The notes: generated by a model from the letters alone, not told the origin. Counted from the stretch's first letter, positions 3,067-58,349 are shown. The stretch is DNA of 64,000 nucleotides from a candidate division WOR-1 bacterium RIFCSPHIGHO2_01_FULL_53_15 (GCA_001772335.1 METM01000020.1:17795-81794); one strand, 5' to 3'. Program-made: numbers and translations.

Positions 3067-3732
3067 CTATTTCGGGGCGTGCTTGATGACTTTGCCTTCC
3101 ACCATATAGACGACGTCTTCGCCGATATTGGTCGTGTGGTCGGCGATCCGCTCGAGATGCCTGGCGATCAGGATGAGCGGCAGAGCTCGGGAAATGGTGG
3201 ACGGGTCCTTGGTCATGATCCCTACCAATTCGTCATGGATCAGGTCGCGATAGCCGTCGGCTTTTTCCTCATCTGCCCAGAGTCCCCGCGCCATCGCCGC
3301 ATCGCGTTTGACGAAAGAGTCAAGCGCCCGGTGGACCATCTTTTCCGCCAGTTCCGCCATTTTGGGAATGTCTTCGAGCGGCTTGAGGAGCGGCTGTTTG
3401 GAGAGCTCGAAGGCGCGCAAAGCGATATCGACCGCCAGGTCGCCGATCCGTTCGATGTCCGAGGCGATGCGCATGCCGGTCGTAATAAAGCGCAAGTCGA
3501 TCGCCATCGGCTGCTGCGTCGCCAGGAGCTCCAGGCAGAGCTCATCGATCTCCAGCTCGAGCTTGTCGATCCCGTCATCTAATTTAATGACCTGATCGGC
3601 CATTTTGGCATCCGACTTCTTGAGCGCCTCGACCGAATTGAAAATGCTCTTCTCGACCATTCCCCCCATTTTTAAGATGAGGTCGTTCAACTTCGCCAGC
3701 TCCTTTTGAAAGTGCTCCCTCTGTTCTATCAT
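3067..3732 (-). CDS. phoU: Phosphate transport system regulator PhoU
   Basis: 221 aa with two PhoU repeats (DxxIDxLE, ERIGDLAVDIA, ERIADHTTNI). It lies at the 3' end of the pst operon. Confidence 0.9.
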   Translation of the reverse strand: MIEQREHFQKELAKLNDLILKMGGMVEKSIFNSVEALKKSDAKMADQVIKLDDGIDKLELEIDELCLELLATQQPMAIDLRFITTGMRIASDIERIGDLAVDIALRAFELSKQPLLKPLEDIPKMAELAEKMVHRALDSFVKRDAAMARGLWADEEKADGYRDLIHDELVGIMTKDPSTISRALPLILIARHLERIADHTTNIGEDVVYMVEGKVIKHAPK

Positions 3733-4481
3733 TAACCAAACCTCCCTGTGATGTAATCCTCCGTCCGTTTATCAGCCGGGGTCGTGAAGATCTTTTTCGT
3801 GTCGGCAAACTCGACCAGCTCGCCCAGGAGCAGATAGCCGCAATCGTCGGAGATGCGCGCCGCCTGCTGCATGTTGTGCGTCACGATAACGATAGTATAC
3901 TGCTTTTTCAGTTCGATCATCAACTCTTCGATTTTCATGGTCGCAAAGGGGTCGAGCGCCGAACAGGGCTCATCCATCAGCAGGACCTCCGGCGTGACGG
4001 ACAAAAGCCGCGCGATGCAGAGGCGCTGCTGCTGCTCGAGCGAGAGGCCGAGGGCGTTCATTGAGAGCTTGTCTTTTAGCTCATCGAACAGGAGCACGGC
4101 CGACAAACTCTTCTCCGCCGCCTCGGCCAAAACCTGTTTGTTCTTTTCGCCGTGGACGCGCAGGCCATAGACGACATTCTCGAAGACCGAGAGAGGGAAG
4201 GGATTAGGGCGTTGAAAGACCATGCCGATCCTTTTGCGCAGGGTGATCAGGTCAATTTCATGGTCAAGGATCTCCTTGCCCTCGAAATTGACGCTGCCCG
4301 ACATCCTGACACCCTCGATCAGGTCGTTCATCCGGTTAAAGACGCGCAGGAGCGTCGACTTGCCGCAGCCCGACGGCCCGATCAGCGCGGTGATCCGGTT
4401 GCGCTCGATCGCCAGGTCAACATCGATCAGCGCTTGGAATGCGCCATACCATAGGTTCAATTTGTTCGTTTTGATGATCAT
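3732..4481 (-). CDS. pstB: Phosphate ABC transporter ATP-binding protein PstB (copy 2). Walker A, Q-loop and H-loop are canonical, but the signature motif is degenerate.
   Basis: It carries [30 protein letters not shown] and VTHNMQQ. The signature reads [13 protein letters not shown] instead of [13 protein letters not shown]. Confidence 0.9.
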
Positions 4482-5230
4482 TATCCGAATCTCCCGGTAA
4501 TATAATCTTCAGTGCGCTTGTCTTTAGGCACGGTAAAGACCTGTTTCGTCTCGCCGATCTCGATCATCTCGCCCATCAGGAAGAAAGCTGTCCGGTTGGA
4601 GACGCGGGCCGACTGCTTGACGTTGTTGGTTACGAGTATCTGGGTGTAATTTTTCTTGAGCTCCTGCATCGCCTCTTCGACCTTCAGCGTGGAAATAGGG
4701 TCAAGCCCCGAGCACGGCTCATCATAGAGGATAACCTCCGGCTCGACCGCCAACGTCCGCGCAATGCAGAGCCGCTGCTGCTGCCCGCCGGAGAGTTTAA
4801 AGGCATTCGTCTGCAGACGATCTTTGACTTCATCCCAGATAGCGGCGGCTTTCAGCGATTTCTCAACGATTTCAGAGAGCCGCGCCCGGTTTTTTATGCC
4901 ATGCATTCTCGGCCCGTAGGCAATGTTGTCAAAAATGGAAAGAGGGAAAGGAAGAGGAAGCGCAAAAACGATTCCGACCCTTTTTCTCACCGAGTGTTTA
5001 TCGATCTCTTTTATTCTCACTCCGTCCAGAAGGATTTCTCCACTGGTTCTGGAATTTGGATAAAGTTCGTTCAAACGGTTCAGGGCCTTCAGAAACGACG
5101 TCTTGCCGCTGTTGGAAGGGCCGATGATTCCAAGGATATCATGCTCCTTGACCTCCAGCGACAAGTTCTTGACCGCGTGGACGCCCTCAAAGAAGACGTT
5201 CAGGTTCTTAACTTCGATTTTGTTCACCAC
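4481..5230 (-). CDS. pstB: PstB paralog (copy 1). The signature motif is intact but the Q-loop and H-loop are substituted.
   Basis: It carries [22 protein letters not shown] and [11 protein letters not shown]. The Q-loop reads [10 protein letters not shown] (Q to A) and the H-loop reads VTNNVKQ (H to N). Confidence 0.85.
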
Positions 5231-6072
5231 GTCTTCCTCTTTCTAAACCGCGCCCGGATATAAGCAGCGATAACGTTCAGAATAAAGATCATGCCGACCA
5301 GGACGAGAACCGTGCCGTATTGGATCTTGACGCTGACGCCCGGCACCTGGGTTGAGAGAACATATATATGGTACGGCAAAGCCATGGCCTGGTCATAGAC
5401 CGATTGCGGCAGGCGGGGCAGGTAAAAAGCCGCCACCGTAAAGAGGATCGGCGCCGTCTCGCCGGCGGCGCGAGAGAGCTCCAGAATGGTTCCGGTCATG
5501 ATCCCCGGCACGGCATTGGGCAGGACAACGTGGCGCACCGTCTGCCAGCGCGAAGCGCCCAGCGAATAGCTGACTTCACGAAACGAACGAGGCACGGCGC
5601 CGAGCGCCTCGCGGGTGGCGGTGATGATCACCGGCAAGCCCTCGATCGCCAGCGTCAGGGAACCGGCCAGAATTGACGAGCCAAAATTGAGAAAAATGAC
5701 AAAAAGTCCCAGGCCGAACAGGCCGTAGACGATCGAGGGAACGCCGGCCAGATTAATGATGGCCAGCTCGATCAGCCGCGTCAGCCGGCTTTTTGGCGCG
5801 TATTCATTCAGATAGATCGCCGCCAGGATCCCCAGCGGGATGGAAAAAACTGCCGCGCCCAGCACCAGGTAAGTTGTGCCAACGATAGCCGGGAAAATGC
5901 CGCCCGCCCGCATCCCCTCGCGCGGCATACTAAAAATAAATTCCAGCGAAAGACCGGGTAAGCCGCGGAACAGGACTAGCAGGACGATTAGCGCTACCGG
6001 GATGACGATCAGGATCGTGGCTGCTTGCAGACAGGCAAAAGCTATTCGCTGGGTACGATTGGTGTCTCTCAT
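5224..6072 (-). CDS. pstA: Phosphate ABC transporter permease PstA
   Basis: 282 aa polytopic membrane protein with an EAA-like loop (ALGAVPRSFREVSYSLGASRWQT). Its position in the operon fits. Confidence 0.9.
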   Translation of the reverse strand: MRDTNRTQRIAFACLQAATILIVIPVALIVLLVLFRGLPGLSLEFIFSMPREGMRAGGIFPAIVGTTYLVLGAAVFSIPLGILAAIYLNEYAPKSRLTRLIELAIINLAGVPSIVYGLFGLGLFVIFLNFGSSILAGSLTLAIEGLPVIITATREALGAVPRSFREVSYSLGASRWQTVRHVVLPNAVPGIMTGTILELSRAAGETAPILFTVAAFYLPRLPQSVYDQAMALPYHIYVLSTQVPGVSVKIQYGTVLVLVGMIFILNVIAAYIRARFRKRKTW

Positions 6073-6938
6073 CTGGCCGCCTTCCTGTGCAAAAAGAGAT
6101 CGGCCAGCAGGTTAATGACGAAGCTGATAATAAAAAGAACAATGCCGATGGCGAACAGTGCGTAATAATGCTCACTGCCGGAGACCGCCTCCCCCATCTC
6201 GGCGGCGATCGTCGCCGTCAGCGTCCTGACCGGCTGGAGTATGCTCGTCGGCAGGACCGCCGCGTTGCCGGTGATCATGAGGACCGCCATCGTCTCGCCA
6301 ATCACCCGTCCTATACCAAGCATGACGGCCGCCAGGATGCCGGACGAGGCGGCCGGCAGGACAACGCGATAAATAGTCTGCCAGTGGGTGGCCCCCAGCG
6401 CCAACGACCCCTCGCGATAGTTCTTGGGTACGGAGACGATGGCGTCTTCGATGATCGAAACGATCGTCGGCATTGCCATGAAGGCCAGCATGATCGAGCC
6501 GGCCAGCGCGGTCAGCCCGCTCGACAGGTGAAAAACCGATTTTAAAAAGGGCGCCAGGGTCACAATACCGATAAAACCGAGAACGATGCTGGGAAAGGCG
6601 GCCAGAAGCTCAATACCCGATTTGAGGATATCGCGCAATTTGGGCGGCGCCACCTCGGCCACGTAAATGGCCGACGCCAGGCCCAGCGGCACCGCGATCA
6701 CGATCGCCCCCAGTGTTACCAGGAGCGATCCCAGAAATAGCGGCAGGATACCGAAACGCGGCGGATCGGAGATTGGGTACCAGTTCTTGCCAAAAAGAAA
6801 ACCGGTTAAGCTTTCGGTCTGGAAGAGCGCCAGACCTTCCTTGAGCAAAAAGAAAAAGATCAGCACCACGAAAATGATCGAGGCGATCCCCGAAAGGAAG
6901 ATCGCCCGCTCGATCAGGAATTCGAAGGCTCTTTTCAC
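6069..6938 (-). CDS. pstC: Phosphate ABC transporter permease PstC
   Basis: 289 aa polytopic membrane protein with SLALGATHWQT. It overlaps pstA by 4 nt. Confidence 0.9.
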   Translation of the reverse strand: MKRAFEFLIERAIFLSGIASIIFVVLIFFFLLKEGLALFQTESLTGFLFGKNWYPISDPPRFGILPLFLGSLLVTLGAIVIAVPLGLASAIYVAEVAPPKLRDILKSGIELLAAFPSIVLGFIGIVTLAPFLKSVFHLSSGLTALAGSIMLAFMAMPTIVSIIEDAIVSVPKNYREGSLALGATHWQTIYRVVLPAASSGILAAVMLGIGRVIGETMAVLMITGNAAVLPTSILQPVRTLTATIAAEMGEAVSGSEHYYALFAIGIVLFIISFVINLLADLFLHRKAAR

Positions 6939-7786
6939 TTGATAGGCACAAAATCCATTTTGAGCACGACCTTTTGGCCAGCGTCGCTTAAGATATAATC
7001 AATGAAGGCCCTGGCTTCGCCCGACGGCTCGCCGTTGGTGTAAAAGAGAAGCGAGCGGGAGATCGGATACTGGCCGCTGGTCACGGTCTTAACCGAAGGA
7101 ACAACATAGGCCGAGCCGCTGTTTTTCGCCACCGCCAGCGCTTTCTCCTGCGCCGTCAAATAACCGAGACCGACATAGCCGATCGCCGATGTGTTGGCTT
7201 TAACCTCTTCGATGATCGCCTGTGAAGAAGGCATCATCAGGACAGGGGGGGCAAATTCATTGGGGTTCTTTTTTTGAGCTAGCTTGACCACATGTTCAAG
7301 GAAGAATACGTGTGTGCCGGAGTTCCTCTCGCGCGAGAGGGCGACGATCTTTGAGTCCGTCCCGCCCATCTCTTTCCAGTTCTTGATCTTGCCAGTGTAG
7401 ATATCCGAGAGCTGTTGGATCGTCAATTTGCCGACCGGGTTGGCTGGATTGACGACGATCGTGATACCGTCATTGGCCACGTGAATCTCCTGCGGGGATA
7501 TTCCTCTCTTTTTGGCCATGGCAATTTCTTTCGGTTCGATATTCCTTGATGACTCGGCAATGTCGGTCGTTCCCTGGATCATCGCCGCGATCCCGGTCCC
7601 TGAGCCGCCGCCGGTCACTGCGATCGAAATCGCCGGGTTAAGTTTCATAAAATCCTCGGCCCAGGCCTGGCCAAGGTTCACCATCGTGTCCGAGCCCTTG
7701 ATTTGAAGAGCTTTTTTCCCGCCGCCGCAGCCAGCAAGGGCAAAGGCAAGTAAGGATACCGCGAACAGAAACGCAATTTTTTTCAT
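6935..7786 (-). CDS. pstS: Phosphate-binding lipoprotein PstS
   Basis: The signal peptide plus lipobox reads MKKIAFLFAVSLLAFALAGCGGG. The rest is a PBP-like fold with SGTGIAAMIQGTTDIA. Confidence 0.9.
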   Translation of the reverse strand: MKKIAFLFAVSLLAFALAGCGGGKKALQIKGSDTMVNLGQAWAEDFMKLNPAISIAVTGGGSGTGIAAMIQGTTDIAESSRNIEPKEIAMAKKRGISPQEIHVANDGITIVVNPANPVGKLTIQQLSDIYTGKIKNWKEMGGTDSKIVALSRERNSGTHVFFLEHVVKLAQKKNPNEFAPPVLMMPSSQAIIEEVKANTSAIGYVGLGYLTAQEKALAVAKNSGSAYVVPSVKTVTSGQYPISRSLLFYTNGEPSGEARAFIDYILSDAGQKVVLKMDFVPIK

Positions 7787-7793
7787 GCTTCTA

Positions 7794-7846
7794 TTATCGG
7801 CGATGAGAATGAAGGTTTGATGACAGAAATGTTAAAAGCATGTAAA
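7794..7846 (-). promoter_or_regulatory. pstS promoter. Pho-box-like heptamer direct repeats sit at 11-bp spacing, with a -10 (GATAAT) 7 nt before the ATG.
   Basis: The minus strand reads TTTACAT-gctt-TTAACAT-tt-CTGTCAT-caaa-CCTTCAT...GATAAT-agaagc-ATG. The CTGTCAT-type repeats resemble the PhoB binding consensus. Confidence 0.45.
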
Positions 7847-8857
7847 TTATCTTGATGGAAAAACCAGCGTAAACTTCGAGCCCCGGCCGACTTCGCTCTC
7901 CACCCTGACCGAACCGCCGTGGATCTCCATGATGTGCTTGACGATCGAGAGGCCAAGTCCGGTCCCACCCTGGTCGCGCGAACGGGCCTTGTCGACCCGG
8001 TAGAAGCGCTCAAAAAGCCGTGGCAGGTGCTCGGCCGAAATGCCTGCTCCCTGATCCTTGACGCTGACTTCCATAGTTTTCTCTGCCTTGCGGCAGCCGA
8101 TCTCCACTTTGCCGCCAGCCGGCGAATAATTGACGGCGTTATCGACCAGGTTGAGCAGGGCACGATAAATGAGGTTCGCGTCCCCGAACAGGCGGCAGGG
8201 CGCCGGCCGCTCGATCATTATTGCTTTTGTCTTGAGCTTGCCGGCGAGCGTCTCGATCACTCTGTCAATCTCCTGGCCGAGCTCGACTTCGGCGAACGGT
8301 TCCAGCCCTCTCCTGGCTTCTAAGCTTGAGAGCTGGAGAAGGTCGTCGATCAGGGCGGAGAGGTTCTGTGTATTCTTATCTATCTTCTGGAGAAATTCAC
8401 GGTTGTGCGCCTGATCATTGATCGCTCCGTCGATCAGTGTCTCGACATAGCCCCTGATGGCGGTCAGCGGTGTCTTGAGCTCGTGGGAAACATTGGCGAC
8501 GAATTCGGAGCGCAGGTTTTCGAGCTTCTTGATCTCGCTGATGTCGTGGAAGATCAGCGCGATGACGGCCGGCTCGCCCTCTTCGGTTTCGATCAAGCTC
8601 ACCGAGCAGGAAAATATCTTCTCCTCGGGATAGATGACCCTGATCTCTTTCTCAAGCGGCGTATCCGCCTCTCTGGCCGCCGCGGCCAGCTCGGCTAATT
8701 CCGGCAGGCGTATTACCTCGAGTAGGCGCTTGCCGATGACGTCGCCGCGCGAGAGCGAAAAATGATCCAGGAATGATTGATTGGAGTAGATTATCCCGTC
8801 GGCGTCATCGATGACGATCGCGCCGTCGCGCATACCCGATAAGATCGCCTCAAACAT
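7847..8857 (-). CDS. phoR: Soluble sensor histidine kinase (PAS, HisKA, HATPase_c), PhoR-like
   Basis: The H-box is SHELKTPLTAIRGY, and N/G1/G2 boxes are present (DQGAGI, GGTGLGLSIV). There is no TM segment. The likely ATG overlaps the phoB stop (ATGTTTGA). Confidence 0.8.
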   Translation of the reverse strand: MFEAILSGMRDGAIVIDDADGIIYSNQSFLDHFSLSRGDVIGKRLLEVIRLPELAELAAAAREADTPLEKEIRVIYPEEKIFSCSVSLIETEEGEPAVIALIFHDISEIKKLENLRSEFVANVSHELKTPLTAIRGYVETLIDGAINDQAHNREFLQKIDKNTQNLSALIDDLLQLSSLEARRGLEPFAEVELGQEIDRVIETLAGKLKTKAIMIERPAPCRLFGDANLIYRALLNLVDNAVNYSPAGGKVEIGCRKAEKTMEVSVKDQGAGISAEHLPRLFERFYRVDKARSRDQGGTGLGLSIVKHIMEIHGGSVRVESEVGRGSKFTLVFPSR

Positions 8858-9537
8858 GGAATTTATAACCCACGCCGCGCAGGGTCTCGAGATGCCGTCC
8901 GGTTTTGCCCAGTTTATCGCGCAGGCGCCGTATGTGGACATCGACCGTGCGCGTTTCGATCGCCACGTCGATCCCCCAGACCCGGTCAAGGAGCTGTTCG
9001 CGCGAGAAGACCCGCTCTTTGTTCTCGGCCAGATAGTGAAGGAGCTGGAATTCCTTGGCCGTCAGATCGATCTCTTTTCCGGCGGACAACACGATGTGCC
9101 GGTCGGAATCGATCTCCAGGTCTCTGAACTTGAGGGTCGCCTTGGCCGGCTGGCCAACAATTGTTGGCTCATAGCGGCGCAGGATCGTCTTGACGCGGGC
9201 GATCAATTCCTTGACGCTGAACGGCTTTGTAATGTAATCGTCCGCCCCCACTTCCAGGCCGACGATCTTGTCCGTTTCCGACCCTTTAGCAGTTAGCATG
9301 ATGACCGGGATGCCGGATGTTTTGGGATTGCGTTTGAGCCGCCGGCAGACCTCCAGGCCATCCAGCCCCGGCAGCATAAGGTCAAGAATGATGAGTGAAG
9401 GGATCTTGCCCTCCGCCTGCCTTATGCCCTCATTGCCATCATGGGCCTTCATAACCTTCATTCCCTCTTTCTTGAGGTTGTATTCCAGGGTTTCGACGAT
9501 GTCTTTCTCGTCTTCAATAATGAGGATATCAGGCATA
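8850..9537 (-). CDS. phoB: OmpR/PhoB-family response regulator
   Basis: The receiver domain reads MPDILIIEDE...ILDLMLPGLDG...LTAKG. It is followed by a winged-helix domain with VWG and TRTVDVHIRRLR. Confidence 0.85.
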
Positions 9538-9558
9538 TAGAAATTATAGCTTAAAAAT

Positions 9559-9567
9559 GGTAAAATA
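9559..9567 (+). promoter_or_regulatory. Extended -10 element (TGGTAAAAT) 11 nt upstream of the hydG ATG, in the 40-bp divergent phoB/hydG intergenic region
   Basis: Sequence motif only. There is no Shine-Dalgarno sequence before the ATG at 9578. Confidence 0.3.
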
Positions 9568-9577
9568 TACATAAAGT

Positions 9578-10978
9578 ATGCCCTCATTTATCGACGAAAG
9601 TTTGATCCATGCTCTCCTCAAAGAACCAAAGTTCGCCTCGCCCAAGACAGCCGAAAATATCATACAGAAAGCGCTCATGCTCAAAGGGCTCTCCCTTGAA
9701 GAGACTGCCATCTTGCTCAACTGCCAGGACAAGCGGGTCCTCGCCAAATTATTCCGCGCTGCCCGAAAAGTCAAAGAAGCCATCTACGGCCGGCGCCTCG
9801 TCATCTTCGCGCCGCTCTATATCTCAAATTTTTGCGTCAATAACTGTCTCTATTGCGGTTTTCGCCGGGGGAACCTCGCGCTGGCCAGAAAACGGCTGAC
9901 GCTCGATGAAATAAGGGGAGAAGTCCGGGTCCTCGAAGAACAAGGGCACAAACGGATCCTGCTCGAGACGGGCGAAGAGCCGAAGGCCGGCATCGGTTTC
10001 CTGGAAAGAGCGATCAGGGCTATCTACTCGACAAAATACGGGCGCGGCGAGATCAGGCGCCTCAACGTCAACGCGCCGGCCATGTCGGTTGCGAATTTCC
10101 GCCGTTTGAAAAAGTGCGGGCTCGGAACATATCAGCTTTTTCAGGAGACCTATCACCGCGAAACCTACGAAAAAGTCCATCCCTCAGGACCAAAATCAGA
10201 TTTCATCTATCATTTATTCGCCATGCACCGGGCGCAGAAAGCGGGGATCGATGATGTGGGAATCGGCGTGCTCTTTGGTTTATACGACTATAAGTTCGAA
10301 GTTTTAGCCCTCCTCTCCCATGCCCTGGAGCTGGAGCAGCGGTTCGGCGTCGGCCCGCACACCATCTCGGTGCCGAGGATCGAGCCGGCTTCGAACGCCC
10401 CAATTGCCGGCAATCCCCCATACCCCATACCCGATACCGATTTTAAGAAGCTCGTCGCCATCCTGCGCCTGGCCGTCCCCTACACCGGGCTTATCCTCTC
10501 GACGCGCGAATCGGCCAAAATGAGGGATGAAGTGATCGGTCTCGGCATCTCGCAGATCAGCGCGGGATCAAAAACCGTCCCCGGCGGCTACAAAGCGTCG
10601 GAGAATAGGAATAGGAAGAGGAAGAAGGTTAGCGGCCAGTTTTCGATCAGCGACAACCGCTCGCTCGCCGAAGTGATCCGGGATATTTCAAAACGTGGTT
10701 ATTCGCCGAGCTTCTGCACCGCCTGCTACCGGCTGGGGCGCGTCGGTGCGGATTTCATGGATATGGCCAAGCCGGGGTTAATAAAAAACTTCTGTTTGCC
10801 CAATTCACTGCTGACCTATAAAGAATATCTGTTGGATTACGGGGATAAAGCGGCAAAGAAATTAGGAGAGAAAGTCATTAAGCGGCATTTAAAAGACATT
10901 ACAAACCGCAAGATCAAAGAAAAAACAATTGATAAACTGGCCGAACTGGAAACTGGCAACCGGGACCTGTACTTCTAG
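9578..10978 (+). CDS. hydG: HydG-type radical-SAM tyrosine lyase (the CO/CN-generating [FeFe]-hydrogenase maturase family)
   Basis: 466 aa. The N-terminal cluster motif is FAPLYISNFCVNNCLYCGF. A ThiH-like core follows. The HydG-specific C-terminal motif CTAC-x22-C (CX2CX22C) lies at FCTACYRLGRVGADFMDMAKPGLIKNFC. Confidence 0.8.
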   Translation: MPSFIDESLIHALLKEPKFASPKTAENIIQKALMLKGLSLEETAILLNCQDKRVLAKLFRAARKVKEAIYGRRLVIFAPLYISNFCVNNCLYCGFRRGNLALARKRLTLDEIRGEVRVLEEQGHKRILLETGEEPKAGIGFLERAIRAIYSTKYGRGEIRRLNVNAPAMSVANFRRLKKCGLGTYQLFQETYHRETYEKVHPSGPKSDFIYHLFAMHRAQKAGIDDVGIGVLFGLYDYKFEVLALLSHALELEQRFGVGPHTISVPRIEPASNAPIAGNPPYPIPDTDFKKLVAILRLAVPYTGLILSTRESAKMRDEVIGLGISQISAGSKTVPGGYKASENRNRKRKKVSGQFSISDNRSLAEVIRDISKRGYSPSFCTACYRLGRVGADFMDMAKPGLIKNFCLPNSLLTYKEYLLDYGDKAAKKLGEKVIKRHLKDITNRKIKEKTIDKLAELETGNRDLYF

Positions 10979-11010
10979 AAACCGAAAATTTATTAATTTA
11001 TCCCCCTAAC

Positions 11011-11286
11011 TCAGGCAGGCACTAATTCTCTTCGTCTGGTTAATTTTTTCATGCCTTCTGGGCTTAAGATCTTTAGCAACGGCACGTTAAATTGCTTGGC
11101 AAAAGTGTTCAATTCCTTGCCTGACACATGCACGGGGTTAATAAACTCAAACCCAAGAACTTTATTACGTTTGTCCAAATCGACATATATTTCATTTTCA
11201 GAATCCAGCTCAACTGTTTTACTAACCTTGCCTTCACTAACTTGAATATAAAGAAGCCCTTCCGACGCATCTAATGAAATTTGCAT
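11011..11286 (-). CDS. DUF2283-family small protein, a putative antitoxin-like partner
   Basis: 91 aa, reading MQISLDASEGLLYIQVSEGKVSKTVELDSENEIYVDLDKRNKVLGFEF, the DUF2283 pattern. It lies in an AT-rich island. Confidence 0.5.
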   Translation of the reverse strand: MQISLDASEGLLYIQVSEGKVSKTVELDSENEIYVDLDKRNKVLGFEFINPVHVSGKELNTFAKQFNVPLLKILSPEGMKKLTRRRELVPA

Positions 11287-11301
11287 CTTAACCCCTCCTT
11301 G

Positions 11302-11523
11302 TTATGCCCAATATGAAGTAATGATGAGAATAGAGCTGGCTTTCCGTAATTCGTAAACGACCCAAAGCAATTTACCATTCGTATTCCCGCATATCTTATG
11401 TCTCCCTTTTTTCTTTGCCGGGACAGAAGTAGTTTTGTTCTGTAGGGCGATTTTAATCTCGCTGATCTTAATTTTTCTTGAGCTTAATCTCTGCTTAGCA
11501 TGTGGAGTTAAACTGATTTTCAC
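11302..11523 (-). CDS. DUF4258-family small protein, a putative toxin-like partner
   Basis: 73 aa, with HAKQRLSSRKI, GKLLWVVYE and ILIITSYW, typical of DUF4258 paired with DUF2283. Confidence 0.5.
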   Translation of the reverse strand: MKISLTPHAKQRLSSRKIKISEIKIALQNKTTSVPAKKKGRHKICGNTNGKLLWVVYELRKASSILIITSYWA

Positions 11524-11567
11524 ATTTGTATTATATCACACTGCCAAGACATTGGGCGCGGAGAGGG

Positions 11568-12029
11568 TTAGCTATGCACCAGCGAAACTAATTGCATGCT
11601 CGTTTCTTTTAGTTTCAGCGAGATGATCTCCGCTAATTTGTTCATGACGAGGTAGCCCCGCCGGCAGTCGTTCTTGAAGATCTTCTCGACCAGCTCATCC
11701 GCGTTGAGCGTGATCAGCTTGACGTTGTCCAGACACCTGGCGTCGGAGGCAAAGACCTTGGGCTTGGCGAGCGACGGATAGCCGAACATCTTCCCTTTAT
11801 TTTCAGTGTAAACCACGGCCTTTTTATTAGGCCCGATCTCGATTTCGATCGCGACGCGGCCTTCGAGCACGAGATAGATCTTTTCGGCCTTCGCCCCTTC
11901 TTTATAAACGTAGTCGCCCCCCTTGAATTCCTCGACCCTGGAGAGAGCGGCGATATCGCCCAGCTCGTCCAGTTTCAGGAATTCGAACAGGTTCATCCCT
12001 TTGAGTATTTCAGGCGTAACTGCCGGCAT
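11568..12029 (-). CDS. Cyclic-nucleotide-binding domain protein
   Basis: The cNMP-binding beta-barrel pattern is present (FKGGDYVYKEGAKAEKIYLVLEGRV). It is the last gene of the hydrogenase operon. Confidence 0.6.
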   Translation of the reverse strand: MPAVTPEILKGMNLFEFLKLDELGDIAALSRVEEFKGGDYVYKEGAKAEKIYLVLEGRVAIEIEIGPNKKAVVYTENKGKMFGYPSLAKPKVFASDARCLDNVKLITLNADELVEKIFKNDCRRGYLVMNKLAEIISLKLKETSMQLVSLVHS

Positions 12030-12474
12030 AATTGACCTCCTGTTTGATCTTCTCGACAATTTCTGGCATCTTTGCCTCGATCTCCGAACTCAATGACTCC
12101 AAATGCAGAACTTGCTTCGGCTGAACCCCGATGATTATAACATGGCCAAAATCTTCGTTTAAGCTTTGGCCAAGCTTAAGAACCTCGAACAGGCCAAACT
12201 CGTGCAAGGAAAAGTTCCGACTCACCGGCAGCCGCAAAAGTTCTTCGGCGCTGAATCTCGCGATGGCGCCCGGCGCTTTCCCCATCTCGACCGCGTCGAT
12301 CACCACCACTTTTGGAAAGCCTTTGAGTGTTTCAAAGAGCGACAAACCTCCGGTCGCGCCGTTGACCACTTCAACTTCGGGGCCAAGGTCGCCCAATCTA
12401 TCAAGCACCAAAACCCCGATCCCATCATCCCCTAACAAAGTGTTGCCCAGCCCGAGCACCAGGGTTTTAGCCAT
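12010..12474 (-). CDS. hycI: Hydrogenase maturation endopeptidase (HycI/HoxW family)
   Basis: The protein reads LVLGLGNTLLGDDGIGVLV...VVVIDAV, the protease signature. Confidence 0.8.
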   Translation of the reverse strand: MAKTLVLGLGNTLLGDDGIGVLVLDRLGDLGPEVEVVNGATGGLSLFETLKGFPKVVVIDAVEMGKAPGAIARFSAEELLRLPVSRNFSLHEFGLFEVLKLGQSLNEDFGHVIIIGVQPKQVLHLESLSSEIEAKMPEIVEKIKQEVNYAGSYA

Positions 12475-13799
12475 CAGACAAAATCGACTTTGAGCATGTG
12501 GACCGAGCAGGAGATGCAGGGGTCATACGCCCGGACAAGCATTTCCAGAAGCAGGGTTATCTCTTCCTGCGGCCGGTCGAGGATCGTCGGCACGAGCGCC
12601 CGCATGTCGTCCTCAATATTGGCCAGGTTCTGGCCGGTCGGGATGACGCAATTCGCCCACGAGAGGAGGCCGTCGTCATCGATGCGGTATTCGTGGAAGA
12701 GGACGCCGCGCGGCACTTCAACGGCACCCACCCCCCAGCATTTCTTGACCGGCGGCAGTTTGGCCGACCAGCCGGCGATGGTCTGGCGCTCGACCGTCTC
12801 GTCCTTGAGCCCGCGGCGCAGCAGCTCCTCGATCAAATAGATCATCCGCTCGATATTGTGGACCGATTCGACGACCTGCGCCGCCGAGATCAGGTAAGGA
12901 TTATAGTTGGGCGCGGCAAGGCCGAGCTTTTGCGCCGCGGCTTTCGCGGCCGGCATCAGCTGGTCAGAGTTGATATTGAAACGTGAAAGAGCGCCCACCA
13001 TGTACGGCCGGAACGGTCCTTTGGCTTGTTTGGCGGTCGAATGGAGCACCACTTCTTCTTTGACCTTGTTCTTATAATCCCGGTGCCTGGTCTCGCCGGT
13101 TTCCGTAGAATGAATGATCCCGTCGTAATAAGCGTACTCGTCGGGATGTTTGAGGGCGACATAATCGGTCTTTCTCTCAAAAGCAGGGAATTTCAACGAG
13201 GCGAAAAGGTCAAGCGTTGGTGGGACATCATCGGAGAGCATCGTCTTGAGCTGTTTGAGCGCGTCCCGCAGCTGCGCTTCCGTTGGAATATGAGTGAAAC
13301 CGTCGACGACCATCGAGATCGGATGCGGGTGCCGCCCGGCAATGATCGTTACGATATCATCGGCTAATTTCTTCATGCGCAGGGCGCGCTTGACGACATC
13401 GGGATGGCTGGCCGCTAACGGAATGACGCTCGGCACGCTGAAGAAATCAGGTGCGACGAGAAAATAATAGTGCAGGACGTGTGATTGCATGATCTCGGCT
13501 TCCAGCACGGCTTTTCTTAAGAGCAGCGTTTGCTCCGACGGCTCGATGCCGAGAGCGTCCTCGAGCGCCCGCAGTGAGGCGGTCGTGTGGCCGACGGCGC
13601 AGATGCCGCAGATGCGGCTGGTGATCTGGGGCGCTTCGGGAAAGCGCCGGCCGCGCAGCATCGCCTCAAAAAAGCGCGGCGACTCGACGATCTGCAGTTC
13701 CACTTTTTTGAGCTCGCCGCTCTGCACGTCGATGACGATATTGCCGTGGCCTTCGACGCGAGCCACGTGATGGACATTTATATTAATGTCTTTTGACAC
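12474..13799 (-). CDS. hydA: [NiFe]-hydrogenase large (alpha) subunit, group 3b sulfhydrogenase-like
   Basis: The N-terminal motif is RICGICAVGH. The C-terminal motif is DPCISCSVH, followed by a cleavable MLKVDFV tail. Confidence 0.9.
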   Translation of the reverse strand: MSKDININVHHVARVEGHGNIVIDVQSGELKKVELQIVESPRFFEAMLRGRRFPEAPQITSRICGICAVGHTTASLRALEDALGIEPSEQTLLLRKAVLEAEIMQSHVLHYYFLVAPDFFSVPSVIPLAASHPDVVKRALRMKKLADDIVTIIAGRHPHPISMVVDGFTHIPTEAQLRDALKQLKTMLSDDVPPTLDLFASLKFPAFERKTDYVALKHPDEYAYYDGIIHSTETGETRHRDYKNKVKEEVVLHSTAKQAKGPFRPYMVGALSRFNINSDQLMPAAKAAAQKLGLAAPNYNPYLISAAQVVESVHNIERMIYLIEELLRRGLKDETVERQTIAGWSAKLPPVKKCWGVGAVEVPRGVLFHEYRIDDDGLLSWANCVIPTGQNLANIEDDMRALVPTILDRPQEEITLLLEMLVRAYDPCISCSVHMLKVDFV

Positions 13800-14551
13800 T
13801 ACTTGCCAACCTCCATCATCCCATTTAACATGCGGTAGAATTTCAAACTCTCCTCAACAGTCAAACCGGCGCCGGAGAGGGTCTCCTGATGGGCGTTGAG
13901 GTTCGGCTCCTCGACCAGCCCGCGGCAGCCGATGCAGGCGTTGCCGTAGCTCGGGCAGTGGGCGCTGCAACCGGCGCGGGTGACAGGGCCCAGGCAGGTG
14001 ATCGGCCTCTCTTTGTGGAACGTGCAGACGTTCCCCTTCATCTTGCACTGGACGCAGACCGGGAAGTTCGGTATATACGGTTTCTTCCCCTGCAGGATCG
14101 CCGTCACGATCTCGACAAACTCTTCGCCGTCGCGGTTCGGGGGACAGCCGCGCGAATAATAATCGACCTTGACGACGGCGTCGATCGGCTGGGCCAGGAT
14201 CGAATCGAAATTGGCGACCTTATCGCCGTAAACGGATTTTTTGATCTCGAACTGGTTGTCGAAGTTCCTGATGCAATTGATGCCGCCGATATGGGCGCAG
14301 GCGCCGAGCGCGATCAGGATTTTGGCCTGTTGTCTGATCGCGCGGATCTCCTCGATCTCGTGGACGGTGGAGAGGGCGCCTTCGACGATCGCCACGTCGT
14401 AATCCTCGCCCTTGTAGCTTGAGGCCTCGCGGAAGTTGACGACCTCAACGGCGCCGAGGAGATCGAAGAGCTTGTCGGCCATCGAGAGGACGACGAGCTG
14501 GCAGCCCTCGCAGCTCGTGAAACTGAAAAACCCGACTTTCGGTTTACTCAT
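13799..14551 (-). CDS. hydD: [NiFe]-hydrogenase small (delta) subunit
   Basis: It shows the FTSCEGCQ proximal-cluster motif and additional Cys clusters. Its start/stop (ATGA) overlaps the large-subunit gene. Confidence 0.85.
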   Translation of the reverse strand: MSKPKVGFFSFTSCEGCQLVVLSMADKLFDLLGAVEVVNFREASSYKGEDYDVAIVEGALSTVHEIEEIRAIRQQAKILIALGACAHIGGINCIRNFDNQFEIKKSVYGDKVANFDSILAQPIDAVVKVDYYSRGCPPNRDGEEFVEIVTAILQGKKPYIPNFPVCVQCKMKGNVCTFHKERPITCLGPVTRAGCSAHCPSYGNACIGCRGLVEEPNLNAHQETLSGAGLTVEESLKFYRMLNGMMEVGK

Positions 14552-14552
14552 A

Positions 14553-15374
14553 TTAAATACTTTCCGGTATTTTCTTGAGCTCGGCGTAGTTAAAGACCGG
14601 TCCGTCCTGGCAGACGTAGATCTCGTTCATCTGGCAGTGGCCGCACTTGCCGACGCCGCACTTCATCTTGCGTTCAAGCGACATCCAGATATTGGCATCC
14701 GCCAGCCGCCGGGCCTTGAGCTCCTTGATCACGAAACGGTACATGACCGGCGGGCCGACGATGACCGCCTGGGTCTTTTTTTCGTCGATCTCGACGCGGG
14801 GGATGAGCGTCGTGATGACGCCGACGTCGCCCTGCCAGTTCTCATCGCCCAGGTCAACCGTGATCATGCACTCAACAGTGCCGCCGCACTCCCACGATTT
14901 CAGTTCCCCCTTGAACAAGAGATCGCGCGGCGTCTTACAGCCATAGAGGACATTGATCTTGCCGTATTCCGGCCGCCGATTGAGGACTTCAAGGATCAGC
15001 GACCGCAGAGGGACCAGCCCGATCCCGCCCGCGATGAAGAGGATATCCTTGCCCTTGAACCTGGCGATGTCAAAACCGTTGCCGAACGGGCCGCGGATGC
15101 CGATCTTGTCGCCGACTTTCTTCTCGAGTAAGGCGTTGGTAACGTTGCCCACCTTTCTGACGCAGAGCTCGAAAGTCGGCTTGTCGGGCTCCGGCGCGGA
15201 AGAGATGGAGATCGGCGCTTCACCGATACCAAAGATCGAGACCTCGACGAACTGGCCCGGTTTGTGGCCGAGCGTTTTTCTCTCCGTCAACTCAAGCTCA
15301 AAAAAGGTCTCGAGCGGCGTCTGGGGGATGACTTTTTTAATGACGGCCAATTCCGGCGTATAAAGCGTTTTCAT
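14553..15374 (-). CDS. hydG: Sulfhydrogenase gamma subunit-like oxidoreductase with FAD/NAD(P)-binding and a [2Fe-2S] domain
   Basis: A ferredoxin-reductase-like fold is followed by a C-terminal CGVGKCGHCQ motif. The likely start MKTLYTPEL overlaps the beta-subunit stop (ATGA). Confidence 0.8.
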   Translation of the reverse strand: MKTLYTPELAVIKKVIPQTPLETFFELELTERKTLGHKPGQFVEVSIFGIGEAPISISSAPEPDKPTFELCVRKVGNVTNALLEKKVGDKIGIRGPFGNGFDIARFKGKDILFIAGGIGLVPLRSLILEVLNRRPEYGKINVLYGCKTPRDLLFKGELKSWECGGTVECMITVDLGDENWQGDVGVITTLIPRVEIDEKKTQAVIVGPPVMYRFVIKELKARRLADANIWMSLERKMKCGVGKCGHCQMNEIYVCQDGPVFNYAELKKIPESI

Positions 15375-16408
15375 ATTTTCCTCGAATAAATCTCGTTGGC
15401 GATCTCTAAGGGACTGACGATCTTTGTCAGGCAGGCCTTGATGCAGCGGCCGCAGCCGGTGCAGAACGACTCGCCCCATTTATCGAAGAGGTAATTGAGC
15501 TTGCGGTAGGTGCGGTGGCGCAGGCGGTGCGAGCGGTCTTCGCGGAAGTTCTCGCCCGAAGCGACCTTGGCGAATTCTTCGGTCATACAGCCGTCCCAGA
15601 CGCGGCTGCGCACTCCCTTGACCAAACTGACGTGCATGTAATCCTGCACGTCAAAACAATAACAGGTTGGGCAGACCATGTTGCACGAACCGCAGCCGTA
15701 GCAGAGTTTGCCGTGCTCCTCCCAGACCGGATGATCAACGTTCGCTTTCATCAATTTCGGCAGATCCTGATATTTCGGCAGGAGTTTTTTCTCTTTCTTG
15801 TCAAAGATTAAGTTCCGCTTTTTCCTGACGGCCGAAAGTTTCTTCTTATCGGCGGCCTTCGCCGCCACCGCCCCCTCGATCAGCGCCTCGCCTTTCGGTG
15901 TGGCCGCCTCGGCAGAGAATGAATTCCCGATATCGGTCAAAAAGAGATCGAAACGGCCTTTGGGATCGAGGCCGCCCAGGCGCAGGCAGATCGCCTCCGG
16001 CGAACATGGAGTGAGGCAGTCGACGCCGACAAGCGTCATCGCCTTGCGTTTTGCGGGGTAATTCGAGTCGATGTTCTTTTCCGCCCAGACGCGGTCCATC
16101 TGGCCGATAGCATTGAGATCGCAGGGATGGACACCGAAGAGTATCCTCTCTTTGACGGTATTGAGCCCGGTTATTTTGACCTCATCGTTGCTGAATTCAT
16201 AGGCCAGCAGATCCTCTGACTGCGGATATAAGAATTGTTTCGGCGGGATGACGGTTTGCGGCGCGCCCCAGACGATCTGGTCGGGTGAGCTGAGCGGGGC
16301 AAAGGCGGTAAAGTTCTCATGGGCGACCGGGGCGATGACCTCGTTCGTCTTGATCAGGTTTTCGATCAGATCATTGAGCCGCTCTTTTTTGACGATATAG
16401 TTCTTCAT
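15371..16408 (-). CDS. hydB: Sulfhydrogenase beta subunit-like Fe-S protein (AsrA/HydB family)
   Basis: 345 aa with two Cys clusters (CYGCGSCNMVCPTCYC and CTGCGRCIKAC). Confidence 0.8.
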   Translation of the reverse strand: MKNYIVKKERLNDLIENLIKTNEVIAPVAHENFTAFAPLSSPDQIVWGAPQTVIPPKQFLYPQSEDLLAYEFSNDEVKITGLNTVKERILFGVHPCDLNAIGQMDRVWAEKNIDSNYPAKRKAMTLVGVDCLTPCSPEAICLRLGGLDPKGRFDLFLTDIGNSFSAEAATPKGEALIEGAVAAKAADKKKLSAVRKKRNLIFDKKEKKLLPKYQDLPKLMKANVDHPVWEEHGKLCYGCGSCNMVCPTCYCFDVQDYMHVSLVKGVRSRVWDGCMTEEFAKVASGENFREDRSHRLRHRTYRKLNYLFDKWGESFCTGCGRCIKACLTKIVSPLEIANEIYSRKI

Positions 16409-16642
16409 TCACTCTACGCGGATCGACTCGAGCACCAGCTCTTCGCCGCTCGTCGAATCGATCTCCAGCCGGGCGGCTTCGGCCTTGGTTCCCCTCGCCG
16501 CTTCCCTGAAGAGATATTCTATATCATGCGGCCGGGCGTGGCAATTCTCGCCGACCTTCAGACGGACGGCTTCGACTCTTCTCCCCTCACAACGGGCCAG
16601 AACTTCCCTCAAAACGTCAGCGACCAGCTTTAAGCCATGCAT
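16409..16642 (-). CDS. HypA-like N-terminal nickel-binding domain protein lacking the zinc-finger C-terminal domain
   Basis: 77 aa, reading MHGLKLVADVLREVLARCEGRRVEAVRLKVGENCHARPHDIEYLFREAARGTKAEAARLEI, which parallels the HypA N-domain (MHE...). It stops without any CxxC pair. Its stop overlaps the hydB start. Confidence 0.45.
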   Translation of the reverse strand: MHGLKLVADVLREVLARCEGRRVEAVRLKVGENCHARPHDIEYLFREAARGTKAEAARLEIDSTSGEELVLESIRVE

Positions 16643-17914
16643 TTAAATTCCCAGATCGGTCGGCGCCCGGCCCAGGGAATAGAGGAGATCGAGCGTCGCC
16701 TTGATCTGCGCTTCGATCGTTTCTTCGGCGTGAGCGCGGCCGGGATAAATTTCGTAGAGCTTTCGGTATTTGAGCGGCGTCACGTTGAGCATGACGGAGT
16801 TCGCGCCGGCCATCAGACCAAGTTTTTGGGCGCTGGGCTCAAGCGTTTCAAAGCCGGTCGTGACGAGTATCCTCGCGTTTTTCGGATCGACCAGCCGGCT
16901 GACGGCGAGGACTTTAAGGACAAGCTCGGTCTTCGGCCCGTACGGCAGGACCGGACCGAACGAATACATCTCGGCGTTCAGCTCTTTGGTCAATAATATG
17001 TCATCCAGCAAGCTTTCGATCGACTGGCCGGGGAGGCCGATCAAGCCACCGGTCAGGACGAGATAGCCAAGAGAATAAGCGTCTCGTATATTTTGAAGAC
17101 GCTCTTCGAGCTTATCGCCGCAGTGAAGATTGGCATAAAGCTTCGGGTCGCTCGTCTCAAACCTCGTCAGAACGCCTCTCGCTCCGGCGTCATAAAATTT
17201 CTGGAGCCCTTCCCTGCCAACCTCCCCAACCGAAATGAAGATCAAAACTGGATATCGCTTCTTGATCTCCTTGATCACCCCTACGACTCGATCCACTTGA
17301 TATTCTTGATCCTCTCCCGACTGGAGGACTAAAGCCTTAAACCCATGCTTCTCTATCGCCTCCCCCGCCGCCTCAACGATCTCCTCCTCGCTCATCCGAT
17401 ACCTCTTTAAGATCGAATTGCTTTTTCGTATACCGCAATAGACGCAGTCGTGCCGGCAGTAGTTGGAAAATTCAATTATGCCGTGGACACAGCAGGAATT
17501 CGAGAGATATTTCTGGCGCAGGAAGTTGGCCGTCTTAAAGAGCTGGTCGAGCTCGGCCGGCTTTTCGGTGGCCAGGAGTTTTAACAGTTCTTCTCTTTTC
17601 AGCTCACGCCCCTCTGCCGCTTTGTCGAGGATTAGCGAAAGATCATTGCCGATCCCGGTCTCCTCTTTCGGGCGGCGCGAGAGGCGCAGATCCGTCTCGC
17701 GCAGTTCAAAGAATGTTTCTTTCCAGAGCTCGAGCGTGGCCAGCGCCTCTGGCTCGGGCACCACCTTGATCACATAGCCCCCCTGGGCGTAGATGAAGTC
17801 GCCGGCCTTTAGCTCCGCGATCTCATTGATCGCCTTCTTCTTTTCGCCAAAGTATTCGACCGTGACGGTCTTGCTGTTTATTTCGACAACCTGGCCGGGG
17901 ATGGCGTAGCACAT
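16643..17914 (-). CDS. Fusion of a HypC/HupF-like N-domain with a HydE-type radical-SAM enzyme
   Basis: Residues 1-70, MCYAIPGQVVEI...GDFIYAQGGYVIKVV, match the HypC signature (Cys2, MC-x-A-[IV]-P). The rest reads GIIEFSNYCRHDCVYCGIRKSN (CX3CX2C) with a BioB/HydE-like TIM barrel of ~350 aa. Confidence 0.7.
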   Translation of the reverse strand: MCYAIPGQVVEINSKTVTVEYFGEKKKAINEIAELKAGDFIYAQGGYVIKVVPEPEALATLELWKETFFELRETDLRLSRRPKEETGIGNDLSLILDKAAEGRELKREELLKLLATEKPAELDQLFKTANFLRQKYLSNSCCVHGIIEFSNYCRHDCVYCGIRKSNSILKRYRMSEEEIVEAAGEAIEKHGFKALVLQSGEDQEYQVDRVVGVIKEIKKRYPVLIFISVGEVGREGLQKFYDAGARGVLTRFETSDPKLYANLHCGDKLEERLQNIRDAYSLGYLVLTGGLIGLPGQSIESLLDDILLTKELNAEMYSFGPVLPYGPKTELVLKVLAVSRLVDPKNARILVTTGFETLEPSAQKLGLMAGANSVMLNVTPLKYRKLYEIYPGRAHAEETIEAQIKATLDLLYSLGRAPTDLGI

Positions 17915-38837: not shown

Positions 38838-38947
38838 CTTCCTCCCGTTTACTATAACCCGAATTCTTGGTACAATTGTTTATCGGCAGGGGTTCCTAGA
38901 AATTTCAGGGGATTTTGGGAAATTGCGGGATTAGGGGGGATCGAAGA

Positions 38948-39286
38948 ATGATTGGAAAGCTGAACGAAATTGAAGAAAAGGCGGTTAAGGAATTTACTCA
39001 TGAATTAAGATCCTTTGCCGGTAGAAGCGTTAAACAGGTCTTGTTGTTCGGCTCAAAAGCCAGGGGCGATTTCAATAAAGAATCCGATCTTGATTTATTT
39101 GTGCTTGTCGGGCAAGCCGATCGCGATTTAAGGCGCAAAGCCGCGCAGATCGTAAATGAAATCCTGCTTAAATACGGCGTTTTGATCTCGCCGAGATTAA
39201 TTCCCGAAATCCGCTATGCTTTCCAAAAACGCCTGGAAACCGGTTTTATAAAAAATGTTGAACGGGACGGCATAGAGATTGAATAA
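38948..39286 (+). CDS. Nucleotidyltransferase (MNT-like) antitoxin component
   Basis: It has the LLFGSKARGDFNKESDLDLFVLV Pol-beta NTase motif. The RBS is AGGGGGGA. Confidence 0.7.
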   Translation: MIGKLNEIEEKAVKEFTHELRSFAGRSVKQVLLFGSKARGDFNKESDLDLFVLVGQADRDLRRKAAQIVNEILLKYGVLISPRLIPEIRYAFQKRLETGFIKNVERDGIEIE

Positions 39287-39686: not shown

Positions 39687-39692
39687 TAGATC

Positions 39693-58333: not shown

Positions 58334-58349
58334 TGTAAAGATTATAGCA
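58269..58349. repeat. Direct repeat copy 1 (~81 bp), the native ychF 5' end plus promoter
   Basis: I read it directly. It is near-identical to 59022..59102, with 3 substitutions and one 2-bp indel. Confidence 0.8.

Follow-up and report, generated by a model that had tools for sequence, protein, structure and literature searches.

A HypC::HydE-like fusion protein and HydG beside a group 3b [NiFe] hydrogenase: a candidate hybrid hydrogenase maturation module recurring across several phyla

How does a [NiFe] hydrogenase obtain its Fe(CN)2CO unit when the maturation genes beside it resemble those of the [FeFe] pathway? This question is raised by positions 9578 to 17914 of a 64,000-nucleotide stretch of DNA (the window) from the bacterium RIFCSPHIGHO2_01_FULL_53_15 of candidate division WOR-1 (GCA_001772335.1 METM01000020.1:17795-81794), a Saganbacterium (HO1A). 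An earlier note on this DNA had listed five features there, namely a HydG-like radical S-adenosylmethionine (SAM) enzyme, a fusion of a HypC domain to a HydE-like enzyme (hereafter FUS), a truncated HypA, a HycI protease and a four-subunit group 3b [NiFe] hydrogenase, and had proposed that the Fe(CN)2CO unit is supplied from tyrosine by a radical-SAM route. Our analysis confirmed all of the listed genes, which are given below together with the last gene of the operon. On balance, we lean towards the reading that they belong to a conserved multi-phylum [NiFe] maturation module which has taken over the [FeFe] H-cluster pathway's first two enzymes, with FUS and HydG as the source of the Fe-CO/CN unit.

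9578..10978, plus strand: HydG (TIGR03955), with CX3CX2C and C-terminal CX2CX22C motifs
16643..17914, minus strand: FUS, HypC::HydE-like fusion, first gene of the operon (PF01455, PF04055, PF06968)
17690..17914, minus strand: HypC domain of FUS, residues 1-75, by alignment to HypC structures in the PDB
16661..17632, minus strand: HydE-like radical-SAM domain of FUS, residues 95-418, by match to Thermotoga maritima HydE (7O1O)
16409..16642, minus strand: zinc-less HypA (HypA'), N-terminal domain only, 77 residues (PF01155)
15371..16408, minus strand: group 3b beta subunit, Fer4_22, AsrA/HydB-like
14553..15374, minus strand: group 3b gamma subunit, FAD/NAD-binding and 2Fe-2S; the open reading frame reaches 15479
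13799..14551, minus strand: group 3b small (delta) subunit, HydD/ShyD-like (PF01058)
12474..13799, minus strand: group 3b [NiFe] large (alpha) subunit, ShyA/HydA-like (PF00374)
12010..12474, minus strand: HycI/HybD-type maturation endopeptidase (PF01750, 75.7 bits; TIGR00072, 123 bits against a cut-off of 47)
11568..12029, minus strand: cNMP-binding-domain protein without a DNA-binding domain, last gene of the operon (PF00027)

The genes on the minus strand abut or overlap, so that they form one tightly packed operon running from 17914 down to 11568, and the cNMP-binding gene is part of it. The start of the gamma subunit is probably the ATG at 15374 and not at 15479; the gene calls of relatives are 271-274 residues long. 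HydG is convergent to the operon in the window, and locus L101 has the same layout (retrieved loci carry L numbers). In the close relatives L106 and L126, whose large subunits are 82-85% identical to that of the window, HydG lies inside the operon, between FUS and the beta subunit. The hydrogenase has the four subunits of group 3b (alpha, delta, gamma and beta), and the RxCGxC and DPCxxCxxH motifs occur in its alpha subunit as RICGIC and DPCISCSVH. The C-terminal extension of this subunit is seven residues long (MLKVDFV). Against the Pyrococcus-type equivalog models the hydrogenase scored below the cut-offs, indicating a distant member of group 3b. Carnevali et al. 2019 included the large subunit of the window, as Saganbacteria HO1A scaffold_383_32, in their files of hydrogenase alignment, tree and labels, and the supplements of that study give the HO1A genome as 1.56 Mb in 33 scaffolds with 98% completeness (PMC6349859).

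The HypC domain of FUS matched PF01455 over residues 1-64 with 46.5 bits (cut-off 28.5) and TIGR00074 with 44.5 bits, just under the cut-off of 48. It starts with MCYAIPG, so that Cys2 and Pro6 of the MCxxxP motif are present, and both residues were found in 97 of 97 FUS sequences. The position of Escherichia coli His51 is occupied by Gln44 in the window FUS. None of the 97 FUS sequences has histidine there (Gln in 92, Thr in three, Ala in one and Tyr in one), whereas all four reference HypC proteins do (2Z1C, 3VYR, 3D3R and 2OT2). Swapping C2 or H51 of HypC, or C41 of HypD, has been reported to abolish activity and cofactor content in E. coli (PMC12134894).

Residues 95-418 of the window FUS matched T. 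maritima HydE (TmHydE, 7O1O) with 227 bits and about 40% identity. Against TIGR03956, the HydE equivalog, the window FUS reached 232 bits and other FUS proteins 243 and 223 bits, below the cut-off of 254.6. The radical-SAM motif CX3CX2C is at C153, C157 and C160, and M316 and M375 correspond to TmHydE M224 and M291. TmHydE R54, T134, R155 and K309, on the other hand, correspond to H144, F226, G247 and R393. Previous work has indicated that M224 and M291 hold the Fe(I) intermediates of HydE and that R54, T134, R155 and T269 contact the cyanide ligands (PMC11826987).

We then compared these positions, mapped through the PDB alignment, in 90 distinct FUS proteins and 32 plain HydE proteins from the fetched loci. 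The cluster cysteines (TmHydE C63, C67 and C70) and the two methionines were kept in all 90 FUS and all 32 plain HydE. R54 was H in 90 of 90 FUS and R in 32 of 32 plain HydE, and R155 was G or A in 90 of 90 FUS and R in 32 of 32 plain HydE. T134 was replaced by F in 82 of the 90 FUS and was T in 27 of the 32 plain HydE, and K309 was mostly R in the 90 FUS and K in 24 of the 32 plain HydE. The FUS pocket signature was thus found in every FUS representative, triple fusions with HydG included, and in none of the 32 plain HydE; a HydE::HydG fusion without HypC (P0162) retains the R/T/R pocket. Judged by these residues and profile scores, FUS is a diverged paralog and not HydE. Two shorter proteins, P0139 (365 residues) and P0144 (352 residues), have the H/F/G signature and no HypC domain, perhaps because the system is split there or because the gene calls were cut short. 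The window FUS is 100% identical to an NCBI protein of the HO1A genome, and in the databases FUS is labelled as biotin synthase, HydE, HypC or generic radical SAM protein.

FUS proved to be widespread. At least 120 homolog clusters were 64-80% identical to the window FUS, all with the PF01455 plus PF04055 architecture. A scan of one genome per GTDB species, made with two search patterns of which one lies inside the HypC domain, showed a FUS relative in 334 species from at least five phyla. The host labels of the best 80 include Saganbacteria/Margulisiibacteriota, Omnitrophota, Brevinematales, Atribacterota, metagenome-assembled genomes (MAGs) labelled Planctomycetales, and Mcinerneyibacterium. 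The Atribacterota include Caldatribacterium inferamans SIUC1, which is in culture (PMC13408713), and in the Caldatribacterium locus L066 FUS directly follows a 3b operon. Among the 1.84 billion cluster representatives searched, about 25 full-length FUS were found at 41-60% identity and, lower down, ordinary HydE of about 350 residues at 36-46% identity to FUS. The plasmid collection yielded plain HydE only and no FUS. One FUS locus (L034) is labelled Candidatus Falkowbacteria; its gene order equals that of the WOR-1 locus L035, and the two have near-identical similarity values to the window proteins, so that the label is probably a result of mis-binning and not of FUS in that phylum.

The neighbours of FUS were counted in roughly 80 independent loci, with 10 kb flanks in which open reading frames were called and clustered:

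[NiFe] large subunit: 61 of about 80 loci
gamma subunit: 50
beta subunit: 49
HycI: 48
HypA of about 80 residues: 48
small subunit: 43
HydG, within 10 kb: 33
Rex-like regulator: 31

The recurrence of [NiFe] large subunits, HycI, HypA' and HydG near FUS is far beyond chance. Most often the genes run beta-gamma-delta-alpha-HycI-HypA'-FUS-(Rex)-HydG. The last part of this order, HycI-HypA'-FUS-(Rex)-HydG, also comes after an Mbh-type group 4 operon in seven loci (L041, L047, L069, L071, L074, L077 and L082), and in several Saganbacteria (L001, L005, L010, L017 and L021) FUS lies ahead of a group 4-type cluster, that of L021 ending with HydG. The comparative genomics called for by the earlier note showed that the module recurs in different phyla and accompanies [NiFe] operons of group 3b as well as of group 4. 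All 61 large subunits near FUS, 3b and group 4 alike, have RxCGxC, DPCxxCxx[H/R], a C-terminal extension and the four Ni/Fe-ligating cysteines, and because these cysteines are retained they are true [NiFe] enzymes. For the same reason we ruled out that the group 4 large subunits are non-catalytic Ehr proteins. The Rex-type redox-sensing repressor (Put_DNA-bind_N plus CoA_binding; for example, L054 11338-11970) is often placed between FUS and HydG or upstream of the beta subunit, which implies NADH/NAD-dependent control of the module.

In two lineages the three maturation domains are joined in one polypeptide. The triple fusions HypC::HydE-like::HydG are P0124 (906 residues, L087 10001-12721) and P0132 (881 residues, L091 10001-12646). 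P0124 comes after beta-gamma-delta-alpha-HycI-cNMP, the gene set of the window including its cNMP-binding gene, and P0132 is surrounded by 3b subunit genes and has a HypA of 84 residues close by. In every fusion HypC forms the N-terminal part, as the chemistry of Cys2 requires. In a distant FUS lineage (L096), HypC-FUS-HydG stand beside a convergent 3b operon in a different gene order; here a stand-alone 76-residue HypC precedes FUS (9766-9996) and an extra radical-SAM gene of 373 residues adjoins 3b beta (16474-17595).

A remodelled pocket shows that the substrate or product of FUS is unlike that of HydE, and about half of the FUS loci have no HydG within 10 kb. One could therefore suppose that FUS performs some other radical-SAM reaction, such as a post-translational modification, with its HypC domain docking onto the large subunit and HydG close by through coincidence or regulation. 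We regard this as very improbable, as HydG is fused to FUS in two lineages and adjacent in 33 loci, all FUS keep the methionines that bind Fe(I) in HydE, and the only known product of HydG is the substrate of HydE (PMC11826987).

HydG of the window scored 539 bits against TIGR03955 (cut-off 312) and 295 bits against ThiH, under the cut-off of 380. It matched Thermoanaerobacter italicus HydG (PDB 4WCX) over the full length with 570 bits and about 60% identity, and has both motifs, CVNNCLYC (CX3CX2C) and CTAC-x22-C, the latter for the auxiliary 4Fe-4S/dangler-Fe cluster. By these sequence features it is a canonical HydG, predicted to act as a tyrosine-lyase radical-SAM enzyme that makes CO and CN-. 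The identities ThiH, BioB, PylB and HmdB were considered for both radical-SAM proteins and rejected, all being far below the cut-offs.

From metagenomes, 80 loci were retrieved by similarity to HydG. HydG was beside FUS in 13 of them, none of which had HydE, HydF or HydA, and beside plain HydE, HydF or HydA in 46, none of which had FUS, HycI or [NiFe] genes and where HydF was usual. The remaining 21 showed neither context, four of them with HycI or [NiFe] genes. In this sample, then, the two contexts of HydG, FUS/[NiFe] or HydE/HydF/HydA, are mutually exclusive. In the Saganbacterium locus L098, whose HydG is 75% identical, HydG converges on an Mbh-type operon ending with HycI and a full-length HypA.

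Two further observations concern the surroundings of HydG. In the complete genome WOR-1 RIFOXYB2_FULL_45_9 (L114 6009-14797), HydG is flanked by two small radical-SAM proteins of 256 residues each, and its neighbours also include a Pyr_redox_2 flavoprotein, an Mrp/NBP35-type ParA ATPase, two CbiA-ferredoxin ATPases and DUF2099. The Mrp/NBP35-type ParA ATPases are the family of the archaeal ATP-type HypB and of Fe-S carriers, and these neighbours could be further maturation factors. In one locus only (L068 12757-13014), HydG is directly followed by an 85-residue open reading frame that resembles the C-terminal cluster-binding part of HydF alone (48% identity over 79 residues, CxxC kept); it may be a HydF remnant or a mini-domain.

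The earlier note had also pointed out that a complete hypABCDEF set elsewhere in the genome, together with an [FeFe] hydrogenase and hydF, would account for the two radical-SAM genes conventionally. In that case HydG and FUS would be the HydG and HydE of an [FeFe] pathway with HydF and HydA elsewhere, the fusion to HypC would be incidental, and the [NiFe] enzyme would be matured by hypABCDEF encoded elsewhere. HydG of the FUS context is indeed indistinguishable from HydG of the [FeFe] context, FUS is about 40% identical to TmHydE with M224 and M291 kept, and six or seven Omnitrophota loci have [FeFe] HydABC between FUS and HydG. Atribacteria, too, have [FeFe] hydrogenases (PMC11227167). However, where [FeFe] genes occur there is a separate plain HydE. 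It follows HydG in the Omnitrophota loci L045 and L063, which have [FeFe] HydABC next to FUS, and in L040 HydF, HydG and plain HydE lie upstream of 3b and FUS. This indicates that FUS does not replace HydE in [FeFe] maturation.

As for the Saganbacteria, published work takes away the [FeFe] half of that explanation: [FeFe] hydrogenases were not found in them, and 3b is their only cytoplasmic hydrogenase type, in a study whose genome set included HO1A (Carnevali et al. 2019, PMC6349859). Each Omnitrophota MAG from Ace Lake has a single hydrogenase, which in some is only a 3b [NiFe] enzyme (Williams et al. 2021, PMC8542988). HydF and HydA were found neither in the window nor within 10 kb beyond either of its ends, and HydF was absent from all 13 HydG loci with FUS. 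With FUS scoring under the NCBIfam HydE cut-off, R54 and R155 lost in 90 of 90, FUS placed directly behind HycI and HypA in operons of group 3b and group 4, and triple fusions inside [NiFe] operons, we consider an ordinary [FeFe] role for HydG and FUS improbable.

The remaining question is whether the canonical route to the ligands takes part. As the earlier note had stated for the window, no HypD, HypE or HypF is present in it, and neither these nor HypB were found in the window or in the 10 kb beyond either end, where there are housekeeping genes only. We further searched the window and 177 loci (2.55 Mb) by tblastn, counting high-scoring segment pairs (HSPs) at E <= 0.01. The probes were a HypD from E. 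coli (99.7% identity to an E. coli record), a further HypD from Acaryochloris, and the annotated HypF, HypC, HypD, HypE, HypA and HypB of Cupriavidus necator pHG1. HypD, HypE and HypF gave no HSP in the 2.55 Mb, whereas HypC gave 26, HypA 13 and HypB three; the latter serve as a sensitivity control because they come from distant homologs. Scanning the window and the first 86 loci for motifs likewise showed no HypD, HypE or HypF, and none of the three adjoins any of about 150 loci with FUS or FUS-type HydG. The counts of PMC12727194 were rejected as a baseline for hyp adjacency, as hyp genes were among the queries of that study.

HypA and HypB are also altered in this module. HypA' of the window matched PF01155 with 35.6 bits (cut-off 28.9) at profile positions 1-68 of 112 and has no CxxC; against TIGR00100 it reached 23 bits (cut-off 88). 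It starts with MHG, the consensus among 49 family members being MHE, with few MHD or VHE. In 43 of the 49 the zinc-finger domain with its two CxxC pairs is precisely lost, leaving about 80 residues. The description of HypA as truncated thus holds in that only the N-terminal domain is present, but this is a conserved zinc-less family of 80 residues and not an accidental truncation. Full-length HypA occurs in few loci only, of which L031 and L069 have an adjacent HypB-like GTPase. HypB was detected in three loci only (L031 282-1341, L069 8980-10001 and L073 19162-19785), and none lies near the 80-residue zinc-less HypA. This points to a joint loss of HypB and of the zinc domain of HypA.

From these components we propose the following course of maturation. 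HydG would cleave tyrosine and assemble [Fe(Cys)(CO)2(CN)] at its auxiliary cluster. This unit would go to the HydE-like domain of FUS, which would remove the cysteine by radical chemistry; the domain retains the radical-SAM cluster and the two Fe(I) methionines and has a remodelled cyanide pocket (R54 to H, T134 to F and R155 to G). A mononuclear Fe(CO)x(CN)y would then skip dimerisation and HydF, to be captured by Cys2 of the HypC domain and delivered to the apo large subunit; the fused domain would thus take the carrier role held by HydF in the [FeFe] pathway and by HypC-HypD in the canonical [NiFe] pathway. An exchange of CO for CN would be needed en route to Fe(CN)2CO. Zinc-less HypA would deliver nickel through His2, and the HycI-type protease would cut off the seven-residue C-terminal peptide.

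Several points weigh against the proposal that the Fe-CO/CN unit comes from FUS and HydG. The product of HydG has two CO and one CN, whereas the [NiFe] site has one CO and two CN. FUS, HydG and hydrogenase are not adjacent in several genomes, for example, in Caldatribacterium L066, and in the complete WOR-1 45_9 genome FUS (L022) and HydG (L114) are about 500 kb apart. No alignment column separates HydG of the FUS context from HydG of the [FeFe] context, the best reaching 0.65. We therefore rejected the idea that HydG itself is specialised; its chemistry is presumably unchanged, and the specialisation would lie in FUS. In the Atribacteria with [FeFe] enzymes HydG has a conventional client too. 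Some Omnitrophota genomes, which may or may not encode FUS, have canonical hypACDEF or HypBCDE, according to entries of the table in Seymour 2023 (genomes 231 and 104). Finally, the evidence is genomic throughout: family memberships, signatures, synteny and fusions were observed, and each chemical step has been deduced from them.

Some of these points would fit a mixed pathway, in which a canonical Hyp scaffold, encoded at another place in the genome, would receive from FUS and HydG, for example, only CO or pre-carbonylated iron, while HypE and HypF provide cyanide on HypC-HypD. The mismatch in ligand numbers would be eased if cyanide came from HypE and HypF, the Omnitrophota genomes just mentioned have hyp genes that might form such a scaffold, and the stand-alone HypC adjoining FUS in L096 would suit it as well. 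The source of CO in anaerobes, which the earlier note had called unresolved, is indeed described in a recent review as the most pressing open question (PMC12134894). Nevertheless, HypD, HypE and HypF are missing beside the roughly 150 loci, the HypC domain lacks His51, a residue needed for activity and cofactor content in E. coli, and the triple fusion suggests that the HydG/HydE product is handed directly to HypC with no HypD step. We hold such a mixed pathway to be rather unlikely, while giving it a real share in our judgement.

Whether FUS and HydG supply the unit themselves or feed such a scaffold, their functional link to [NiFe] maturation, taken over both possibilities, is in our view quite probable. 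The supply from tyrosine proposed in the earlier note is thereby supported in part, in that synteny, triple fusions, the contexts of HydG and the FUS signature tie both proteins to [NiFe] hydrogenases. Its stronger form is that Fe(CN)2CO comes entirely from tyrosine through HydG and FUS, independently of HypD, HypE, HypF and carbamoyl phosphate, with zinc-less HypA inserting nickel without HypB. To this we give a little less than an even chance. The absence of HypD, HypE and HypF covers the window, its flanks and the 2.55 Mb of loci, and full replacement of the carbamoyl-phosphate route is accordingly put forward here as a hypothesis.

Other features lie around the module in the window. A pair encoding DUF2283 (91 residues) and DUF4258 (73 residues) at 11011-11523 on the minus strand lies between HydG and the end of the operon. 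The pair resembles a toxin-antitoxin system, and the GC content of the surrounding 2 kb is 0.488 against about 0.56. It may be a small insertion that split HydG off from the operon. The sister genome (L092) has the pair as well, and the ENA gene call in L093 gives DUF2283 alone. The cNMP-binding protein of about 150 residues is conserved after HycI in Saganbacteria (L092/L093, L100-L102, L106, L126, L129 and L130), and in L087 its gene (9440-9895) is directly ahead of the triple fusion; it is a possible sensor or regulator of the module. HydG is adjoined upstream by a block of phosphate regulon genes (pstSCAB, phoU, phoR and phoB) at 3067-9587 on the minus strand, and the adjacency of HydG and phoB recurs in L098. 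Three stretches of the window (38001-40000, 58001-60000 and 62001-64000) have a GC content of 0.48-0.51, the background being about 0.56. In the first there are a gene with an FGE-sulfatase domain (37740-38837) and small open reading frames, and the other two flank glycosyltransferase and GH130 genes. All three may have been acquired horizontally.

The components of the module come from known families, while the combination and the pathway that it would imply have no description in the searchable literature, where, in line with the claim that such a route was undescribed, we found no account of a HypC-HydE fusion or of HydG in [NiFe] maturation. Judged by its protein families, the module is a hybrid of two known maturation systems. 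According to a 2025 review, which nowhere speaks of radical SAM enzymes, the [NiFe] cofactor requires six Hyp proteins (PMC12134894). The module physically links a known CO/CN-producing enzyme to the [NiFe] iron chaperone and thus offers, for these lineages, a concrete and testable answer on CO. It also raises the possibility that the HydG synthon is a general donor of Fe-carbonyl-cyanide and not specific to the H-cluster. The HydE paralog is now defined by a clean signature (H54/F134/G155), and the findings suggest a minimal set of genes with which 3b hydrogenases might be produced heterologously. The hypothesis can be tested in cultured Caldatribacterium and with a defined small gene set. 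If its stronger form is true, Saganbacteria, many Omnitrophota and other anaerobes would reach the [NiFe] cofactor by a second, independent route, and [FeFe] and [NiFe] maturation would be joined by an evolutionary bridge.

Compared with the canonical system of HypABCDEF and endopeptidase, as found in E. coli and Thermococcus kodakarensis, the module shares a HypC-type chaperone with Cys2 and Pro6, a HypA-type nickel-binding domain starting with MH(E), a HycI/HybD-type protease and a cleavable C-terminal extension of the large subunit. It differs in that its HypC, which has lost His51, is joined to a radical-SAM enzyme, the zinc-finger domain of HypA is missing, HypD, HypE and HypF are absent in or near the operon across about 150 loci, HypB is present in three only, and the ligands are presumed to come from tyrosine rather than from carbamoyl phosphate.

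With the [FeFe] system of HydE, HydF and HydG, the module has in common a canonical HydG and a HydE homolog with the radical-SAM cluster, M224 and M291. Unlike that system, it has no HydF or HydA in the window and the 13 loci with HydG and FUS, its HydE paralog carries R54H, T134F and R155G/A and an N-terminal HypC, and its client by genomic context is a [NiFe] enzyme, with one iron to be furnished rather than a 2Fe unit.

HypX is likewise an accessory, lineage-restricted route to a diatomic ligand of the [NiFe] cofactor outside the core Hyp set. However, HypX uses formyl-tetrahydrofolate and coenzyme A chemistry, is oxic, provides CO only and works with HypCDEF, whereas the module is based on radical SAM enzymes, occurs in anaerobes and could in principle provide both CO and CN. 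Fused [FeFe] maturases such as the HydE::HydG protein P0162 resemble FUS in uniting maturases in one polypeptide, in their case those of one pathway. P0162 has the canonical R/T/R pocket and no HypC, whereas FUS and the triple fusions join two hydrogenase maturation systems.

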